A stretch of 12,475 nucleotides of DNA, from the IMG/VR virus record IMGVR_UViG_2923286960_000002, one strand, 5' to 3'. This DNA comes from a virus (taxonomy: Duplodnaviria; Heunggongvirae; Uroviricota; Caudoviricetes). A model generated the notes under the pieces. The model worked only from the letters and a program-made list of their open reading frames with translations. It was not told the DNA's origin and did no database searches. The position numbers and the translations under genes were made by a program. Position 1 is the first letter of the stretch. Every line of letters begins with the position of its first letter. Positions 1 through 12,475 of the stretch are shown in pieces.

Positions 1-1230
1 ATGAGCAGAGCACTTAACAAACTGAGCGATACACAGCTGAGGAAAATCAACGGCACACCCGCCCAAAAAACAGCCTTTCTTAATGACGGTGGAAACCTGA
101 GCGTCAGGCATTCAACCAGCGGCCTTTTAACCTGGTATTTCACCTACAGGGCCGGAACGGGAAGGGGAGCACGACCGGAACGGATTAAGCTGGGAAATTA
201 TCCTGATCTGAGTCTGAAAGCTGCCAGGGAAAAAGCGGCACAGTGTCGCGCTTGGCTTGCTGAGGGGAAAAATCCACGTCATGAGATGAATTACACCGTA
301 CAGAAAGCGTTAAAGCCCGTAACGGTTGGCGATGCGCTTACCTACTGGCTTGAGTCTTACGTAAAGGAAAACCGCGTGGATTATGCCGCCCTGAAAAAGC
401 GCCTTAATAATCACGTAATACAGCACATTGGTGCTATGCCGCTGGATAAATGCGAGCTACGGCACTGGCTGGCCTGTTTTGACCAGGTGGCAAAGCGAAC
501 GCCTGTTACTGCCGGATTCTTGCTACAGACGTGCAAACAGGCGCTTAAGTTCTGCCGGAGGCGGCGCTATGCAATCAGCAACGTTCTTGATGATATGAGT
601 GTGGCAGACGTTGGGAAAAAACCGGATATAAGCGAGCGTGTCTTAAGCACCAAAGAACTTGGCGAATTATTGCAGGCACTGGACAAAAAAATATTTTCCC
701 CTTACTACGTCGCACTAATCCGCCTCCTGATTGTTTTCGGATGCCGGACGGTAGAACTGAGGTTATCGGAGATCAGCGAGTGGGATTTTACCGAAATGCT
801 CTGGACCGTGCCGAAAGAACACAGCAAAACGAAGGTGGCAATATTCCGGCCCATACCGGAAGCAATACTGCCGTTCGTCACGCAGCTGGTGGAGCAGAAC
901 AGGCACACGGGCTTATTGCTGGGGGAAGTGAAACAGGAAACAAGCGTGTCGCAGTACGGTAGATTAGCGCACAGGAGGCTAAAACACCCTCACTGGTCAC
1001 TGCATGACATCCGGCGCACCTTTACAACGATGCTGAACGATTTAGGCGTGGATCCTCACGTCGTGGAGCAGCTTACAGGTCATCAGATGCCAGGGATGCA
1101 ACGAGTCTATAACCATTCCCGTTATCTGGATGCGAAACGTGACGCGCTGGATATGTGGACGGAGCGGTTAGGGATACTGGCGGGAACACATGAAAACGTA
1201 ACCACATTGCCAATAGCCAGAGAAATATAA
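1..1230 (+). CDS. int: Tyrosine recombinase/integrase, P4 (CP4-57 IntA-like) family
   Basis: 409 aa ORF; C-terminal catalytic region HDIRRTFTTML...LTGHQ...RVYNHSRY matches the R/H-x-x-R/H/Y pattern of P4-type integrases; N-terminal arm-binding-like region. Window starts at its ATG. Confidence 0.93.
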   Translation: MSRALNKLSDTQLRKINGTPAQKTAFLNDGGNLSVRHSTSGLLTWYFTYRAGTGRGARPERIKLGNYPDLSLKAAREKAAQCRAWLAEGKNPRHEMNYTVQKALKPVTVGDALTYWLESYVKENRVDYAALKKRLNNHVIQHIGAMPLDKCELRHWLACFDQVAKRTPVTAGFLLQTCKQALKFCRRRRYAISNVLDDMSVADVGKKPDISERVLSTKELGELLQALDKKIFSPYYVALIRLLIVFGCRTVELRLSEISEWDFTEMLWTVPKEHSKTKVAIFRPIPEAILPFVTQLVEQNRHTGLLLGEVKQETSVSQYGRLAHRRLKHPHWSLHDIRRTFTTMLNDLGVDPHVVEQLTGHQMPGMQRVYNHSRYLDAKRDALDMWTERLGILAGTHENVTTLPIAREI

Positions 1231-1313: not shown

Positions 1314-1595
1314 GGTTAAAAATCAGCCATCGTAATAACCATTTGATTTTTATAGGTGTACTGTTTTTTTATACACTGGCGAATCACTCTTAAAAATATG
1401 TAAAAAAGGCGTAAAAGTAAAATTTTATGCCTTTGCATCATAATGAATTAAAAGAGTTTTTATTCTCATTCCCCCTGCTTCTGTAAAACGACCGCCGCCA
1501 GTGTTTGCCATTCCACAAACACCCTGACACAATCCGACACAACCCAACCCAATAATCCACCCAATGACTCTTTAAGAAACAACAAAGGGGGAATT

Positions 1596-1784
1596 GTGTT
1601 AAGCACAGATCGCTTTATACGTGAAAAAGAATGTCAGCAACTTACAGGCCTGAGCCGCTCATGTCGGTACCGCCTGGAAAAAGCCGGACAATTCCCATCA
1701 CGGCGTAAGCTGGGCGGTCGTTCCGTTGGCTGGTCTTTATCCGAAGTTCTGGCATGGAAGGACAGCTGCGAGGCAGTTCACTAA
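1596..1784 (+). CDS. alpA: AlpA-family (excisionase-like) HTH regulator
   Basis: 62 aa, GTG start preceded by AAAGGGGG SD; motif LTGLSRSCRYRLEKAGQFP...KLGGRSVGW typical of the prophage AlpA/Xis-like family; sits just downstream of int as in CP4-57/PICI layouts. Confidence 0.85.
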   Translation: MLSTDRFIREKECQQLTGLSRSCRYRLEKAGQFPSRRKLGGRSVGWSLSEVLAWKDSCEAVH

Positions 1785-3815: not shown

Positions 3816-4115
3816 ATGAAACTTAAATATTCTGGCTTAACTGCCAGTGGCAACACTCACCCTAAATTTACGCGCGGTGATATTTACCGCGACCAGTACG
3901 GCGGCACGGTAATGATTAAGGGCGTGGAAGAACGGCGTGTAACCTACCGCCGTGAAGGTTACGAATATGATTGCGTGATGCCTGTTTATCAGTTCCGGCG
4001 TGATTTTTCTCTGGTACAGACCGCGCCGCATAACGTGCCCACCAGCAACGCCAGGGCACGGGCAAACATCCAGAAGCTGAAAACCATGATTAACGGATTC
4101 AGGGGTAAAAAATGA
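3816..4115 (+). CDS. Hypothetical protein (99 aa), possibly a conserved enterobacterial prophage small protein
   Basis: Motif GDIYRDQYGGTVMIKGVEERRVTYRREGYEYDC; stop overlaps the start of the replication gene (ATGA at 4112-4115). Confidence 0.5.
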   Translation: MKLKYSGLTASGNTHPKFTRGDIYRDQYGGTVMIKGVEERRVTYRREGYEYDCVMPVYQFRRDFSLVQTAPHNVPTSNARARANIQKLKTMINGFRGKK

Positions 4116-5866
4116 AACTGGCACCGAACGTAAAACAGCAGTCACGCGGCATAAAACACAAAGGAACAGAAGTCATTATTTTTGCGGGTAGTGATGCCTG
4201 GGCACACGCGAAACAATGGCAGGAACATGATGCGCGTATGGCCGGAGATAATGAGCCTCCTGTGTGGCTTGGGGAGCAGCAGTTATCAGAACTGGATAAG
4301 CTGCAAATTGTGCCGGAAGGCAGAAAATCCGTGCGCATATTCAGGGCCGGATATCTTGCGCCAGTAATGATAAAGGCGATTGGCCAGAAGCTGGCGGCGG
4401 CAGGCGTACAGGATGCAAATTTTTACCCTGATGGTATGCACGGTCAGAAGGTGGAGAACTGGCGCGAATATCTGGCCCGTGAGCGCCAGAATCTTTCTGA
4501 TGGTCTGGTCATTGAGCTTCCGGTAAAGCAAAAGGCGCAACTTTCGCAGATGGCGGACAGTGAGCGCGCGCAGCTGCTTGCCGATCGCTTTGATGGCGTT
4601 TGCGTACATCCTGAAAGTGAAATCGTTCACGTATGGCGCGGCGGGGTATGGTGTCCGGTCAGCACAATGGAGCTTAGCCGCGAAATGGTGGCGATCTATT
4701 CAGAGCACAGGGCCACTTTCAGCAAGCGCGTAATCAATAACGCCGTGGAAGCGTTAAAAGTTATTGCCGAACCAATGGGCGAGCCGTCCGGCGATTTGCT
4801 GCCGTTCGCCAATGGTGCGCTTGACCTGAAAACGGGGGAATTTTCCCCGCACACGCCGGAGAACTGGATCACCACGCACAACGGCATTGAGTACACGCCA
4901 CCAGCACCCGGGGAGAACATCCGCGATAACGCGCCAAACTTTCATAAATGGCTTGAGCACGCAGCCGGAAAAGACCCGCGCAAGATGATGCGTATATGTG
5001 CCGCGCTGTACATGATTATGGCGAACCGGTACGACTGGCAGATGTTTATTGAGGCCACCGGAGACGGCGGGAGCGGTAAAAGTACATTCACACACATAGC
5101 CAGCCTTCTGGCAGGGAAACAGAACACGGTAAGCGCTGAAATGACATCGCTTGATGATGCTGGTGGACGTGCGCAGGTTGTCGGGAGTCGTCTTATCGTC
5201 CTGGCTGACCAGCCGAAATATACAGGCGAAGGAACGGGCATCAAGAAAATCACAGGCGGCGACCCCGTGGAAGTTAACCCGAAATATGAAAAGCGTTTCA
5301 CGGCGGTAATCAGGGCGGTGGTGCTGGCGACCAACAACAACCCGATGATATTCACCGAACGGGCCGGAGGTGTGGCACGTCGTCGCGTGATTTTCCGTTT
5401 CGACAATATCGTCAGTGAGGCCGACAAAGACAGGGAGCTACCGGAAAAGATTGCGGCTGAAATCCCTGTGATTATCCGCCGATTACTGGCGAACTTTTCC
5501 GCCCCTGAAAAGGCACGGGCTTTACTCATTGAACAGCGTGACGGTGATGAAGCACTGGCGATAAAGCAGCAAACGGATCCGGTTATTGAGTTTTGCCAGT
5601 TCCTGAATTTTCTGGAGGAAGCGCGCGGCCTGATGATGGGGGGCGGTGGCGATTCAGTGAAGTACACGACCAGGAACAGCCTTTACCGCGTCTATCTGGC
5701 GTTTATGGCATACGCAGGCAGGAGCAAACCGCTAAACGTAAATGACTTTGGCAAGGCTATGAAGCCAGCCGCGAAAGTTTACGGACATGAATATATTACG
5801 CGGAAAGTTAAGGGAGTAACGCAGACTAACGCAATAACAACAGACGATTGCGACGCGTTTTTATAA
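4112..5866 (+). CDS. Replication initiator/helicase, P4 alpha C-terminal-like (D5_N + SF3 helicase); PICI Pri-Rep-like
   Basis: 584 aa; Walker A GDGGSGKST near aa 315 followed by a hydrophobic strand ending LIVLAD; overall resemblance to the phage/plasmid primase P4-family C-terminal domain. No TOPRIM or AEP primase motif recognised by eye in the N-terminal 300 aa. Confidence 0.88.
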   Translation: MKLAPNVKQQSRGIKHKGTEVIIFAGSDAWAHAKQWQEHDARMAGDNEPPVWLGEQQLSELDKLQIVPEGRKSVRIFRAGYLAPVMIKAIGQKLAAAGVQDANFYPDGMHGQKVENWREYLARERQNLSDGLVIELPVKQKAQLSQMADSERAQLLADRFDGVCVHPESEIVHVWRGGVWCPVSTMELSREMVAIYSEHRATFSKRVINNAVEALKVIAEPMGEPSGDLLPFANGALDLKTGEFSPHTPENWITTHNGIEYTPPAPGENIRDNAPNFHKWLEHAAGKDPRKMMRICAALYMIMANRYDWQMFIEATGDGGSGKSTFTHIASLLAGKQNTVSAEMTSLDDAGGRAQVVGSRLIVLADQPKYTGEGTGIKKITGGDPVEVNPKYEKRFTAVIRAVVLATNNNPMIFTERAGGVARRRVIFRFDNIVSEADKDRELPEKIAAEIPVIIRRLLANFSAPEKARALLIEQRDGDEALAIKQQTDPVIEFCQFLNFLEEARGLMMGGGGDSVKYTTRNSLYRVYLAFMAYAGRSKPLNVNDFGKAMKPAAKVYGHEYITRKVKGVTQTNAITTDDCDAFL

Positions 5867-5880
5867 TTTTTTGCAATGGC

Positions 5881-6104
5881 TGTCTACCCTGTCTACCTGA
5901 GTAAAGAAAAATACATTTAATTCAGTATATTAACTTAGGTAGACAGCCTTTTTTCACTGTCTACCTACTATCTACCCTCTCTACCTGATTTTACCTGAAT
6001 CAGACAGGGAGGTAGATACGGGGTAGATAGTGGATAAAAGCACTCTACCCCGCTGAAAGCCGCGCCATTACTGGCATGAGAGCCAGTAAGGTAGATAAGG
6101 TAGA
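5881..6104. repeat. Replication origin: about 11 iterons with TCTACC core in both orientations flanking an AT-rich spacer
   Basis: tgTCTACCc (5883), tgTCTACCt (5893), GGTAGAca (5939), TCTACC (5960, 5971, 5980), GGTAGA (6011, 6022), TCTACC (6044), GGTAGA (6090, 6099); AT-rich 5905-5935. Directly downstream of the replication gene, as in SaPI/PICI origins. Confidence 0.75.
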
Positions 6105-6154
6105 CAAGGGGAGGCACAACTCAAAACTTTTTAAACGAGGGGGTAAAAATAAAA

Positions 6155-6412
6155 ATGCGCACATCAGGAAAACTTAATAATCAGAAGAAGCAGCATAACC
6201 GCGCCATTGACCTTACAGAGCACTGGCTGAGAGTGGCGATAAAAATCATCGACCGCAACACGGGGGAAGGATACGCGAAAGCACATCCCGACCTGATAAG
6301 CGCATTCATGACCACGGCGGCGGCAAACTTTGCCACGCTGACAGAACGGGAGATTGCCGAAGCGGAACAGGTAACAACCATCAACGTTAAAACCGGAGAG
6401 GTGGAATCATGA
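6155..6412 (+). CDS. Hypothetical protein (85 aa)
   Basis: Strong SD GAGGGGG upstream; stop overlaps the SSB-like start (ATGA at 6409-6412). Confidence 0.5.
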   Translation: MRTSGKLNNQKKQHNRAIDLTEHWLRVAIKIIDRNTGEGYAKAHPDLISAFMTTAAANFATLTEREIAEAEQVTTINVKTGEVES

Positions 6413-6831
6413 CAGCACAGATAGCAGCTTACGGGCGGCTGGTGGACGACCCGCAGGTAAAACAGACCAGCAAGGGCACACCAATGACGCTGGCACGTAT
6501 GGCGGTCCCCCTTCCGTGCAGCCAGGCAGATGACGGAACGGCGACGATGTGGTTATCCGTCCTGGCATTTGGCAGACAGGCCGAAGCACTGGAAAGGCAC
6601 CGCAAGGGTGAACTCCTGAGCGTGGCGGGTAACATGCAGATCAGCCAGTGGACTGGGCAGAACTGAGAAACGCGGCAGGGCTGGCAGGTTATCGCAGACA
6701 GTGTAATCAGTGCGCGAACGGCGCGACTGGGCGGCAAAAAAGGTCAACAGGGCCAGGCTACTGACGCGCTGAACAGGGCAAAACAACAGGCGGGGAATGA
6801 TGATCCGTACGGGGATAACATACCGTTTTAA
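6409..6831 (+). pseudogene. ssb: SSB-like OB-fold protein interrupted by a single in-frame TGA (6664-6666); nonsense mutation, readthrough or sequencing error
   Basis: N-terminal 85 aa align to the SSB OB fold (YGRLVDDPQVKQTSKG...WLSVLAFGRQAEALERHRKGELLSVAGNMQISQWTGQN). The same frame continues after the TGA for 54 codons and ends in the SSB acidic tip ...DDPYGDNIPF. The TGA sits where SSB has a conserved Gly codon. Confidence 0.7.
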
Positions 6832-9311: not shown

Positions 9312-9392
9312 ACGGGTCCTTTCCGGCATATGGACCCGTTACGGGGCGGCGACCTCGCGGGTTTTCGCTATTTATGACGTTTTTCCGTGAAG
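9311..9392 (+). other. Lambda-type cos site (cos1): cosQ/cosN plus a short cosB-like segment
   Basis: tacgggtcctttccgg...ccgttacg | GGGCGGCGACCT (9344-9355) CGCGGGTTTTCGCTATTTATGA matches the lambda right-end/left-end junction as recalled, with the 12-nt cohesive end identical; followed by an R3-like cgtttttccgtg. Lies ~90 bp upstream of the Nu1-like gene. Confidence 0.85.
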
Positions 9393-9444: not shown

Positions 9445-9885
9445 ATGATTGATAAAGCTTGTTTTGTAAGTCAGCAGGAAATAGCTGAACATTTCAAGGT
9501 TAACAGAACCACTATTCGCGCATGGACCAAACAGGGGATGCCGTATCTTAATGCGGATCGCGGAAAGTCTGGCGGTTATCACATCGGGCATACATTGCTT
9601 TGGTCTTCAGGTAAAAGCCGTCTTGAGGCCATCAGATATCACGTAGAAACCAGTGTGCTGGAAAAAATTATGTTTGCCAGGCTGCTTTCATCTGAGCGTG
9701 ACGAGTACTCCAGTGAAGAAACAGAACATAGATTTGATGAAGGTTTACAGATTTACGGCTACTCACCGGAAGAAGTGAGCAAAGCGCGAAATAAAATGGC
9801 CGGCTTTCTGGCTGGGTGGCGTCATGCCGTAAGCGTTCGCCGTGCCAGCATGGAACAATCAGTCGTTACAGAACAGCAAAGTTAA
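9445..9885 (+). CDS. Nu1-like HTH protein: small terminase subunit or TerS-mimicking packaging redirector (Rpp-like)
   Basis: 146 aa; N-terminus FVSQQEIAEHFKVNRTTIRAWTKQGMPYL..GKSGGYHIGHTLLW resembles the lambda Nu1 winged-HTH DNA-binding domain (QLADIFGASIRTIQNWQEQGMPVL...); SD AAGGT upstream. Confidence 0.75.
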   Translation: MIDKACFVSQQEIAEHFKVNRTTIRAWTKQGMPYLNADRGKSGGYHIGHTLLWSSGKSRLEAIRYHVETSVLEKIMFARLLSSERDEYSSEETEHRFDEGLQIYGYSPEEVSKARNKMAGFLAGWRHAVSVRRASMEQSVVTEQQS

Positions 9886-10079: not shown

Positions 10080-10150
10080 CTCATAAATAGCGAAAAACCG
10101 CGAGGTCGCCGCCCCGTAACGGGCCATAATTCCAGGAAGGACCCGACGAC
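10080..10150 (-). other. Second lambda-type cos site (cos2), inverted relative to cos1
   Basis: Reverse complement reads cgggtccttcctgg...ggcccgttacg GGGCGGCGACCT CGCGGTTTTTCGCTATTTATGAG (12-mer at complement of 10103-10114), near-identical to cos1 over ~45 bp. Confidence 0.8.
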
Positions 10151-10178: not shown

Positions 10179-10460
10179 ATGACAGAAGCCGAAATACTGC
10201 GATTAATCCGCCGCGTTGCCGGAATCAGCCAGCAGGCCGACGAACAGACCACGCAGCCGGACAGCGTGACCGCCGAAAATTATGTTCGTGTGGTTGCTGA
10301 GATGATTCGCCGTAATGGTATCCAGCTTAATGATGTGGATATGCGCAACATACGGATCCGCGTTCTTGAAATGCTGGCCTACAATCGCCGCGTGGCACTG
10401 TATCGGGAAACGGAGAAAATTACGTACCACTGGAAGAAGCCGGAGCGGTTGCGGCGGTAA
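10179..10460 (+). CDS. Hypothetical protein (93 aa)
   Basis: ATG preceded by GGGGG SD; charged, helical-looking composition; no family recognised by eye. Confidence 0.45.
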   Translation: MTEAEILRLIRRVAGISQQADEQTTQPDSVTAENYVRVVAEMIRRNGIQLNDVDMRNIRIRVLEMLAYNRRVALYRETEKITYHWKKPERLRR

Positions 10461-10628
10461 CTGGTTGATATTTTCGAAATTCGCCAGCGGCGAACATCGG
10501 GGAAACCAGCCTAACCCGTTGATATTTTCGGGAACCTCAAATTGAGGAGGTCGGAAACATAACCCGTCATATTCTGGATGCTGATAATTACCACGCAGCC
10601 CATTAAGGCCTAACCCGTTGATTCTTCC
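10458..10628. repeat. Four direct repeats with TAACCCGTTGAT-like core at ~50-bp spacing
   Basis: taactggttgatattttcg (10458), taacccgttgatattttcg (10512), taacccgtcatattctgg (10560), taacccgttgattcttcc (10611). Confidence 0.55.
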
Positions 10629-10633
10629 ACAAT

Positions 10634-10798
10634 CCCCCATTGGGGGAGGCTGGGCGGCCTGCTGTGGGCTTTTCCACCATTGGTGGAAAGGCGCACATCT
10701 GGATCATCATTACGGTGATCAAGGGTATGTAAAACCCACCAGCCTGATTGACATTTAACCGGAAAAAAGCCAGGTAGCCCCATTATGGGGATCCCCAT
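10634..10798. repeat. Cluster of short GC-rich palindromes
   Basis: CCCCCATTGGGGG (10634-10646), TTCCACCATTGGTGGAA (10672-10688), CCCCATTATGGGG (10778-10790), ATGGGGATCCCCAT (10785-10798). Confidence 0.4.
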
Positions 10799-11014
10799 AT
10801 CGACATTAACGCCCCTCATGAATTGGCGCGCTTCCCCCTGGAAAGATGACCCGCCTGTATATTTCTTGTGTCTATTTGTTCCACGTTGTTTCATACAGTG
10901 CAACGATCGGTGTAGTTAATGGTGTAGTCAATTTGCGATTTTTAGCACTTTTTGCAGTGCGAATCATTTAATTAAATCAATGGCTTGCCTTGATGTAGTG
11001 ATAAAAGGGCATAT

Positions 11015-12475
11015 TTATTCATCTTTCGGCGCAGAATGCTGGCGACCAAAAATCACCTCCATCCGCGCACCGCCCAGCATGCTCTCTCCGGCGACGATTT
11101 TACCCTCATATTGCTCGGTGATTTCGCGGGCTACCGCCAGCCCTACACCTTGCCCAGGGCGTAAAGTATCAACCCGTTGACCACGGTCGAAAATGACCTC
11201 TCGCTTGCTTAATGGAATACCGGGGCCATCATCCTCGACCACAATATAGAGATGCTCGTCGGTTTGCCTTGCAGAAATTTCGACAAACTCGAGGCAATAT
11301 TTACAGGCATTATCCAGCACGTTGCCCATCACCTCGACAAAATCGTTCTGCTCACCGACAAAGCTGATCTCTGGCGAAATATCGAGAGAGATATTGACCC
11401 CTTTGCGTTGATACACTTTGTTCAGCGCTGAGGTGAGATTGTCCAGCAGTGGGGCGACCGGATGCAGCTCGCGGCTGAGCAATGTCCCGCCGCGCATACT
11501 GGCACGATGCAGGTAGTAGCCAATTTGCTGTGAAATGCGGCTGATTTGCTCCAGCATTACCGGCTCAGCATCACTGACGCTCATCTTTTCACTACGCAGA
11601 GAACGCAGCGTACTTTGCAGCACCGCCAGTGGCGTTTTCAGACTATGGGTCAGGTCGGTGAGCGTCGTACGGTATTTGTCGTAACGTTCGCGTTCACTTT
11701 TTAACAATCGGTTCAGGTTTCGTACCAGACTGGTCAGTTCTCGCGTTGTGGCTGGATTGAGCAATTCGCGGTTATGTTCTTCCAGTTCGCGGACTTCTTT
11801 TGCCAGGGCTTCGATGGGGCGTAAACTCCACCAGGCGGCGACCCACAGCAGCGGGATCACTAACAGCAGATTGGCTGAGAGCACATAGATAAACCAGCTC
11901 CAGACCATATAGGAACTTTTTAGCTCCACCGGAATGGTATCCACCACCACAATGGTTAATTTTGGCATCCGCGATGTTGCCGGGTAGACGTTTACTGCCA
12001 CCGAGTGGGTCATCTCCGCGTCGTCATCATCTTCCCGCACTTCCTGCAACTGTTGCTGTATCGAATGATCTCCACTCAGCAAGAGGCTGGTATCGTTAAC
12101 ATCCGCTTCAATTTCATGAAAACCATTCGATTTCAGCCAGTCAGGCTGGATCATCTTCATCAGCCAGGGCACGTCACGTTGCGCCCATAAAAGCTGCCCG
12201 TTCTCATCATAAATTAGCGTCATGGTGGGGCTTTGCTTGTCGATATTTTCGGGTAACTCGACATGCAACTTATTGTTTTCCCACTTCGCAAGGGTATAGA
12301 ACAGATTGCTCTCGCCACGTAACAGCCGAAACGTAGTTTTATCGAAACTGACGCTATAACCGATCAGCGCGACCATTCCGTAGGCAAGCGAAAGCACCAG
12401 TACTACCGCTGCCGTTGCCAACAGAAAACGTACCCGCAGCGAGAGCGGGAAAAAAAGACGCAGTAATTTTTTCAT
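11015..12475 (-). CDS. phoQ: Sensor histidine kinase PhoQ (chromosomal, Escherichia/Shigella-type)
   Basis: 486 aa full-length ORF; N-terminus [33 protein letters not shown], periplasmic acidic patch [12 protein letters not shown]-box [12 protein letters not shown], and G-box/ATP-lid motifs DDGPGIP and GQGVGLAV. Window ends at its ATG. Confidence 0.95.

Follow-up and report, generated by a model that had tools for sequence, protein, structure and literature searches.

Tandem box-and-hairpin repeats behind the last gene of phage-inducible chromosomal islands: a putative IHF-bound, RIB-like element

Introduction

The L linker of BIME-1 elements carries an IHF site, and these elements stand at the 3′ ends of transcription units, as described in PMC3333891, which cites Boccard and Prentki 1993. 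The function of RIB elements is unsettled. The consensus bound by IHF reportedly reads WATCAANNNNTTR, or YAANNNNTTGATW on the opposite strand. A different repeat element, REP325, is transcribed by read-through from a promoter upstream of it and acts together with an HU/IHF-family protein (PMC4550694).

Here we describe a repeat array in a stretch of viral DNA of 12,475 nucleotides, referred to below as the window, to which all positions refer unless stated otherwise. The window runs from the start codon of the gene for a P4-type tyrosine integrase on the left to the start codon of phoQ on the right. Islands found at the same locus in CFT073 and many other E. coli are 98.5 to 100% identical to it, and on the strength of this identity we assign the window to a phage-inducible chromosomal island (PICI) of the EcCICFT073 type (PMC6092414, PMC6739421), with the phoQ 3′ end as its insertion site. 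EcCICFT073 is the model Gram-negative PICI, and its int, alpA, pri-rep/ori, cos, and rpp have already been dissected. It carries the same array, with one base differing in the aligned stretch. In the passages searched of papers on its cos, rpp, and ori and on its capsid-forming relatives, the array and the gene in front of it (p93, for a 93-aa protein) are not mentioned, and full-text searches of the literature, by motif sequence or for PICI together with IHF, brought up nothing relevant.

Results

The genes and sites of the window are collected in Table 1. The two cosN sites match the published cos1 and cos2 of EcCICFT073, with cos2 directed away from the array, and the location of the iterons, 3′ of the primase gene, agrees with that in published PICI replication origins (PMC6092414). 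The copy of the island may be partly decayed, because RefSeq marks a BRO-N gene as truncated (4742–5249 of the full locus L001, window ~2041–2548) and reports an internal stop in an SSB gene (L001 9110–9532, window ~6409–6831). The window also holds nine Chi sites in 12.5 kb, against 0.32 expected from shuffles. One of them keeps its place next to the array in most related islands, and in some distant arrays Chi lies inside the unit tails, a pattern that suggests selection for protection from RecBCD. To the right of the array, the sequence CCCCATTATGGGGATCCCCATA (10778–10797) could form two mutually exclusive small hairpins and is conserved in related islands, among them the distant L044 and L045.

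Table 1. Positions of genes, repeat units, and att-site elements in the window.
Feature	Position	Strand	Remarks
int, P4-type tyrosine integrase	1–1230		Arm-DNA-bind_3 and Phage_integrase domains
alpA	1596–1784		Between int and phoQ
Primase gene, D5_N	4112–5866		Between int and phoQ
Lambda E-like and D-like head genes			Between int and phoQ
ori iterons, TGTCTACC/GGTAGA	5880–6108		Two opposed sets, 3′ of the primase gene
cosN, lambda-type, GGGCGGCGACCT	9344–9355; 10103–10114	+; −	Inverted pair flanking the rpp-like gene
Rpp-like HTH gene	9445–9885		Between int and phoQ
p93 gene, 93 aa, PHROG 1561	10179–10460	+	Stop codon TAA is the first three bases of box 1
Copy 1, TAACTGGTTGAT	10458–10469		
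Box 1, TATCAACCAGTTA on the minus strand	10458–10470	−	Perfect match to the IHF consensus WATCAANNNNTTR
Hairpin 1	10471–10503	+	Outer stem, 2x2 internal loop, inner stem TTCGCC-AGC-GGCGAA
Copy 2, TAACCCGTTGAT	10512–10523		
Box 2, TATCAACGGGTTA on the minus strand	10512–10524	−	Perfect match to the IHF consensus
Hairpin 2	10525–10557	+	Outer stem TTTTCGG/TCGGAAA, 3x3 internal loop, inner stem CCTCA-AAT-TGAGG
Copy 3, TAACCCGTCATA	10560–10571		
Degenerate unit, copy 3, TAACCCGTCATAT	10560–10610	+	Fails the IHF consensus; counterpart elsewhere is CACCCTTCAWATTCTGAATGGTCATAATGACCA
Copy 4, TAACCCGTTGAT	10611–10622		
Box 3 (copy 4), AATCAACGGGTTA on the minus strand	10611–10623	−	Perfect match to the IHF consensus
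Hairpin 3	10626–10654	+	Outer stem TCCA/TGGG, 3x3 internal loop, inner stem TCCCCC-ATT-GGGGGA
Extra hairpin without box, CTTTTCCACC-ATT-GGTGGAAAGG	10668–10692	+	Kept in the O157 island with changed stem sequence
GTTGT-rich stretch, TTGTTCCACGTTGTTTCA	10877–10894	+	Reverse complement of the ACAAC(G) repeats at 1256–1315
Tandem of GGTGTAGTTAAT, GGTGTAGTCAAT	10909–10932	+	75–98 bp left of the core
IHF consensus site, AATCAATGGCTTG	10975–10987	+	Between arm repeats and core; conserved in L003 and L006
att core, GGGCATATTT, 10 bp	11007–11016	.	Common to attL, attR, and the K-12 site without an island; overlaps with the stop codon of phoQ
Chi sites	885, 2296, 5159, 6438, 8325	+	
Chi sites	3035, 4039, 4898, 10736 (see next row)	−	
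Chi, GCTGGTGG	10736–10743	−	Immediately right of the array, within a conserved segment; most related arrays have one in the corresponding position

A preliminary description of this DNA had reported four direct repeats at intervals of about 50 bp, and these proved to be real, their starts being 54, 48, and 51 bp apart. Three of the four are intact (copies 1, 2, and 4). The third begins at 10560 rather than 10561 and is degenerate: of its 12 bases, 8 match, an nhmmer search with the family profile does not pick it up, and it aligns with a separate, conserved type of degenerate unit found in related arrays. When up to two mismatches were allowed, the 12-mer was matched 8 times in the window, three of these matches being the same-strand copies of the array, against 1.01 expected, and none of 200 shuffles reached 8.

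The conserved box is 13 bp long, reading YAANNNNYTGATW on the plus strand and WATCARNNNNTTR on the minus strand, and its three intact occurrences in the array all match the IHF consensus perfectly on one strand within 166 bp. Over the whole window, WATCAANNNNTTR is matched 6 times against 0.57 expected, a number reached by 0 of 200 shuffles, and WATCARNNNNTTR is matched 7 times against 0.92 expected. A scan of genome contigs with p93 gave one locus, and related loci were drawn from E. coli genomes, IMG/VR, and encoding contigs. A pattern scan of IMG/VR combined with a profile search yielded 122 units, with 2 to 6 standing head to tail in each array. Of these, 55 are distinct copies, which come from some 30 related islands. 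Among the distinct units, TAA at box positions 1 to 3 and TGA at positions 9 to 11 are invariant (55/55 each), positions 4 to 7 (N4) vary, position 8 is solely T or C (37/18), and position 13 is A or T in 50; the same number, 50 of 55, fit WATCARNNNNTTR. The box is thus conserved in the pattern of the IHF consensus at each position, down to the two degenerate ones: TAA and TGA are invariant, N4 is free, and the remaining two positions are held to Y and, in 50 of 55 units, to W. Loci from Citrobacter and metagenomes, where p93 is 42 to 59% identical, still keep TAA-N4-YTGATW, and the N4 variants of distant lineages include CCCG, CTCG, TCGA, GTTA, AACC, CTAG, and TCGC. N4 is not fully random, as its first position is C in 51 of the 55 distinct units, a bias that is expected of related copies and is also compatible with another binder. 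Directly beside the box lies an A/T-rich tract (GAAAAT, GGAAGA, or CCTTTTA) whose placement is unlike that at lambda H′ (5′ of WATCAR). Judged by their sequence, the boxes are probably IHF sites.

Each unit spans 48 to 54 bp and begins with the box, followed some 8 to 12 bp downstream by a two-step hairpin tail. In this tail, a small internal loop parts the outer stem from an inner stem of 5 to 6 bp, which is closed by a loop of 3 to 4 nt. The inner stems differ by unit type (CCTCA/TGAGG, CCCCC/GGGGG, TTCGCC/GGCGAA, GCGCAA/TTGCGC, CAGCC/GGCTG, and GGCTCAA/TTGAGCC). Pairing was evaluated on 34 distinct units with 500 shuffles and slid registers as controls. Paired cells made up 90.6% of the total compared with 78.5% in the shuffles, and the covariation score was 0.448 compared with 0.237; neither value was reached in any of the 500 shuffles, and in the slid registers at most 57% of cells were paired. 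Six pairs have changes on both sides, and both stems carry compensatory changes. No half-site sequence was found to be conserved across the hairpins, and selection therefore acts on pairing and not on a dimer-binding palindrome. On the plus strand, G.U outnumber A.C combinations by 60:6 (16:6 once the three outermost pairs are left out), and folding gives z-scores of −2.47 (plus strand) and −1.96 (minus strand), which lends modest support to a structure formed in the sense strand, most simply in a transcript. The spacing of units has modes at 54 and 48 bp, fixed helical phasing was not seen, and intrinsic terminators in the array are no more frequent than by chance.

The hairpins raise the question of whether the units work as RNA only, as tandem modules of the sense transcript. 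Each would have a linear box, a spacer, and a hairpin, in an arrangement like that of nut sites or processed small-RNA arrays, and the modules would serve in antitermination or processing or would decoy an RNA-binding protein. Their geometry recalls boxA-spacer-boxB, and this likeness, the covariation that maintains the hairpins while allowing G.U on the sense strand, and the co-orientation of every array with its operon all speak for such a reading. The gene content of distant array islands does so too: genes for proteins with a ProQ/FinO domain are present there, and in L047 the array is followed by a Q-antiterminator-like gene. However, the covariance models of Rfam 15 gave no match even at permissive thresholds, and no covarying pairing partner was seen for the box. 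Loops and stems differ from unit to unit, which does not fit a single sequence-specific reader of the hairpin, and an RNA-only function does not predict that the invariant and variable positions of the box coincide with those of the IHF consensus. We consider it quite unlikely.

Further explanations for the tandem units were tried and rejected. As RNA repeats of a type III toxin-antitoxin system, the units are too divergent, and a toxin ORF is missing downstream. A CRISPR-repeat mimic or RNA anti-CRISPR was dismissed because the hairpin sequences differ between units and match no single repeat type. Unit lengths are not consistently multiples of three, as coding read-through would have it, and RNA pairing with the nearly complementary AACAACGGGTTA (1307–1318) is unlikely because N4 differs between units. 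The iterons of the PICI ori are unrelated to the box, which is constant across primases of 28 to 100% identity. R elements of cosB, the sites for terminase or Rpp, would be expected in cos-type islands within about 150 bp of cosN on its cosB side; the nearest cosN (10103–10114) is inverted, the array is on its cosQ side at a distance of at least 344 bp, and arrays also occur in islands without a lambda-type cosN.

We next turn to the distribution of the array. The right-end region (10440–10900) is matched in 1156 of 5426 complete E. coli genomes, leaving ~79% without a match, and the module of p93 and array also occurs in Shigella, Citrobacter, and metagenomic contigs. In islands at phoQ, clpS, and yejO it occupies the right end, and the head modules of these islands are Rpp/cos, HNH-TerS-TerL, or others. 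Nearly all related loci have the array starting at the p93 stop codon, over a range of p93 identity from 42 to 100%; p93 is usually the last gene before attR in the rightward operon of the island, and all arrays are co-oriented with that operon. Whatever the integrase, the array is kept (24, 26, 40, 47, 77, and 100% identity to that of the window), as it is across the primases, and it is independent of the att site and of the packaging module, with many array islands lacking a lambda-type cosN. In L047 and L048, the Q-antiterminator-like gene (Phage_antitermQ) and two more genes follow the array within the locus, and in L004, L021, and L041 an array is present and a p93 homologue was not detected by tblastn. 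The repeats mark the end of the last gene of the island and not the attR junction.

p93 belongs to a narrow family, which at 50% identity comprises 38 clusters in a set of 1.8 billion representatives. The protein is small and arginine-rich, and it is all-helical in a low-confidence AlphaFold model (pLDDT 66). Its C-terminus WKKPERLRR is retained by nearly all homologues examined, including one that is 42% identical. Searches of Pfam, PHROG function, NCBIfam, PADLOC, PDB sequences, and Foldseek against PDB were uninformative as to its identity. At the nucleotide level, the last nine codons of p93 (10433–10457) are almost unchanged in L045 and L047. The more distant islands with p93 and an array, L044 to L048, encode PerC-like proteins in addition to those with a ProQ/FinO domain.

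The position of the array behind this gene suggests that p93 might itself be the binder. The boxes, or the box-plus-hairpin units, would then be p93 sites in the DNA or in its own mRNA, forming a self-contained module of a protein and its target, and their likeness to the IHF consensus would be a coincidence or a sign of co-binding. The adjacent 93-aa protein had also been named as a possible binder in the preliminary description, and the proposal holds up insofar as the array does begin at the p93 stop codon in nearly every locus; the small size, helical character, arginine content, and kept C-terminus of p93 point the same way. Against it, the motif is that of IHF, reproduced with its degeneracy position by position, and the box stays unchanged as p93 diverges down to 42% identity. 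Moreover, arrays remain in the three loci where p93 is absent or undetectable, and no domain or fold that binds DNA or RNA was recognised in p93. On balance, p93 is an unlikely reader of the boxes.

The tails of the units, GGCGCGG|TAAC, resemble the end of the p93 gene, TGCGGCGG|TAAC. This resemblance, together with the variation in copy number and spacing, would be expected if the array were a functionless leftover of tandem duplications of the p93 3′ end. Such a remnant would hardly show position-specific conservation across lineages whose p93 is 42% identical, nor compensatory changes in both stems, and we regard this origin as very improbable.

The position of the att core comes from an alignment of three sequences: attL, taken from the full locus L001; attR; and the K-12 site, which is empty. 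The preliminary description had placed the repeats near the right end of the island, just inside the presumed junction; the comparison with the empty site shows that the boxes do lie inside it, at a distance of 396 to 549 bp from the core. The tandem of two GGTGTAGTTAAT seen on the right of the island recurs in attL (L001 2656–2679, 126–149 bp right of the core). Repeats near the core vary by integrase type, with GGTGTAGTTAAT in phoQ and clpS islands and TGTTAAC repeats in the yejO island. From their sequence and placement, 75 to 150 bp from the core in both arms, the GGTGTAGTTAAT tandems are likely the best candidates for arm-type sites of the integrase. The IHF consensus site next to the core has the position expected of an attP IHF site. 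Just downstream of int, six ACAAC(G) repeats with 10-bp phasing (1256–1315) were found, and the inverted sequence is present in both att arms (10877–10894 and L001 2620–2640); these repeats are candidate AlpA/excisionase boxes common to the att arms and the int-alpA control region. Taken together, the core, the arm tandems, the GTTGT stretches, and the IHF site would make up a conventional attP of ~320 bp that does not require the reported repeats. Two further perfect IHF consensus sites are present in the window, one between int and alpA (1336–1348, minus strand) and one in phoQ (11167–11179, plus strand), the latter possibly a chance match. For this integrase family, the likely attP elements (core, arm repeats, and IHF site) are thereby relocated.

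These results bear on the proposal that the repeats are arm-type (P′ arm) sites of the island's tyrosine integrase, marking the region next to attR. The integrase does have an Arm-DNA-bind_3 N-terminal domain, and the repeats are direct and on the attR side. However, the box is missing from the other, int-proximal arm, where a search allowing up to two mismatches gave no match (L001 2531–2701), and its distance from the core exceeds the roughly 150 to 250 bp within which arm-type sites would be expected. The box is also identical in islands with integrases of 24 to 47% identity and other att sites, three genes follow the array within the locus in L047 and L048, and a different tandem, GGTGTAGTTAAT, which does vary with the integrase type, occupies both arms around the core. 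The proposal is contradicted by these comparative data and is extremely improbable.

Discussion

We favor, with a probability of roughly 0.55, the reading that the array is a hairpin-bearing, RIB/BIME-like element bound by host IHF at the 3′ end of the island operon. The sequence pattern of the units, their covariation, their linkage to p93, and their indifference to the integrase are what we observe; occupancy by IHF, transcription of the array, and a biological role are what we infer. IHF would occupy each box and bend the DNA sharply, and 150 to 400 bp at the operon end would be folded into a compact nucleoprotein array. The hairpins would form in the sense transcript, within the 3′ UTR of p93 and the late operon, and would serve as 3′-end structures. 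The array would thus be an island-borne analogue of the IHF-binding RIB/RIP (BIME-1) elements that delimits and insulates the end of the operon. If IHF does occupy the array, a host architectural protein would have a dedicated multi-site landing pad in these satellites, with possible consequences for the expression, stability, or transfer of the island.

The tight linkage to p93 counts against a purely host-factor model, which leaves this linkage unexplained. p93 and the array could instead be an autonomous nucleic-acid/protein module of enterobacterial PICIs, in which a small arginine-rich protein would act with the tandem box-plus-hairpin units behind its own gene. Such a module might be a nut-like device acting on transcription through attP into int and alpA in the excised circle, or an RNA/DNA decoy that soaks up a factor of the host or helper phage. 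We hold this to be decidedly improbable.

Compared with known systems, the array shares with integrase arm sites (lambda P1/P2/P′1-3 and the P4 type) the use of short direct repeats on the island side of att, but it lacks their defining features, and the two GGTGTAGTTAAT in both arms fit better. The IHF sites of lambda attP (H1, H2, and H′) and I1 of cosB follow the same 13-bp consensus as the boxes, and the site at 10975–10987 is where lambda attP would have one, between arm repeats and core. The array boxes differ from these sites in being multiple, evenly repeated, far from both core and cosN, and independent of integrase and terminase. Each unit resembles a lambda nut site in that a conserved linear box is separated by a spacer of ~10 nt from a short sense-strand hairpin. 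The units depart from nut in that their box bears no relation to boxA, both loop and stem of the hairpins are variable, and multiple copies stand at the end of the operon, not at its start. REP325/naRNA resembles the array in having tandem hairpin-forming units downstream of a gene, but its units are REP pairs, its partner is the non-specific HU, and there is no sequence relationship between the two. With RIB/RIP (BIME-1) elements (PMC3333891), the array has in common an IHF consensus beside imperfect palindromes, repeated at the 3′ end of a transcription unit. It differs from them in its lack of similarity to REP units and in being built of direct repeats with one hairpin each and differing sequences, where a RIB is built of inverted REP pairs; and it is confined to one satellite family, with matches in 1156/5426 genomes, and tied to one gene.
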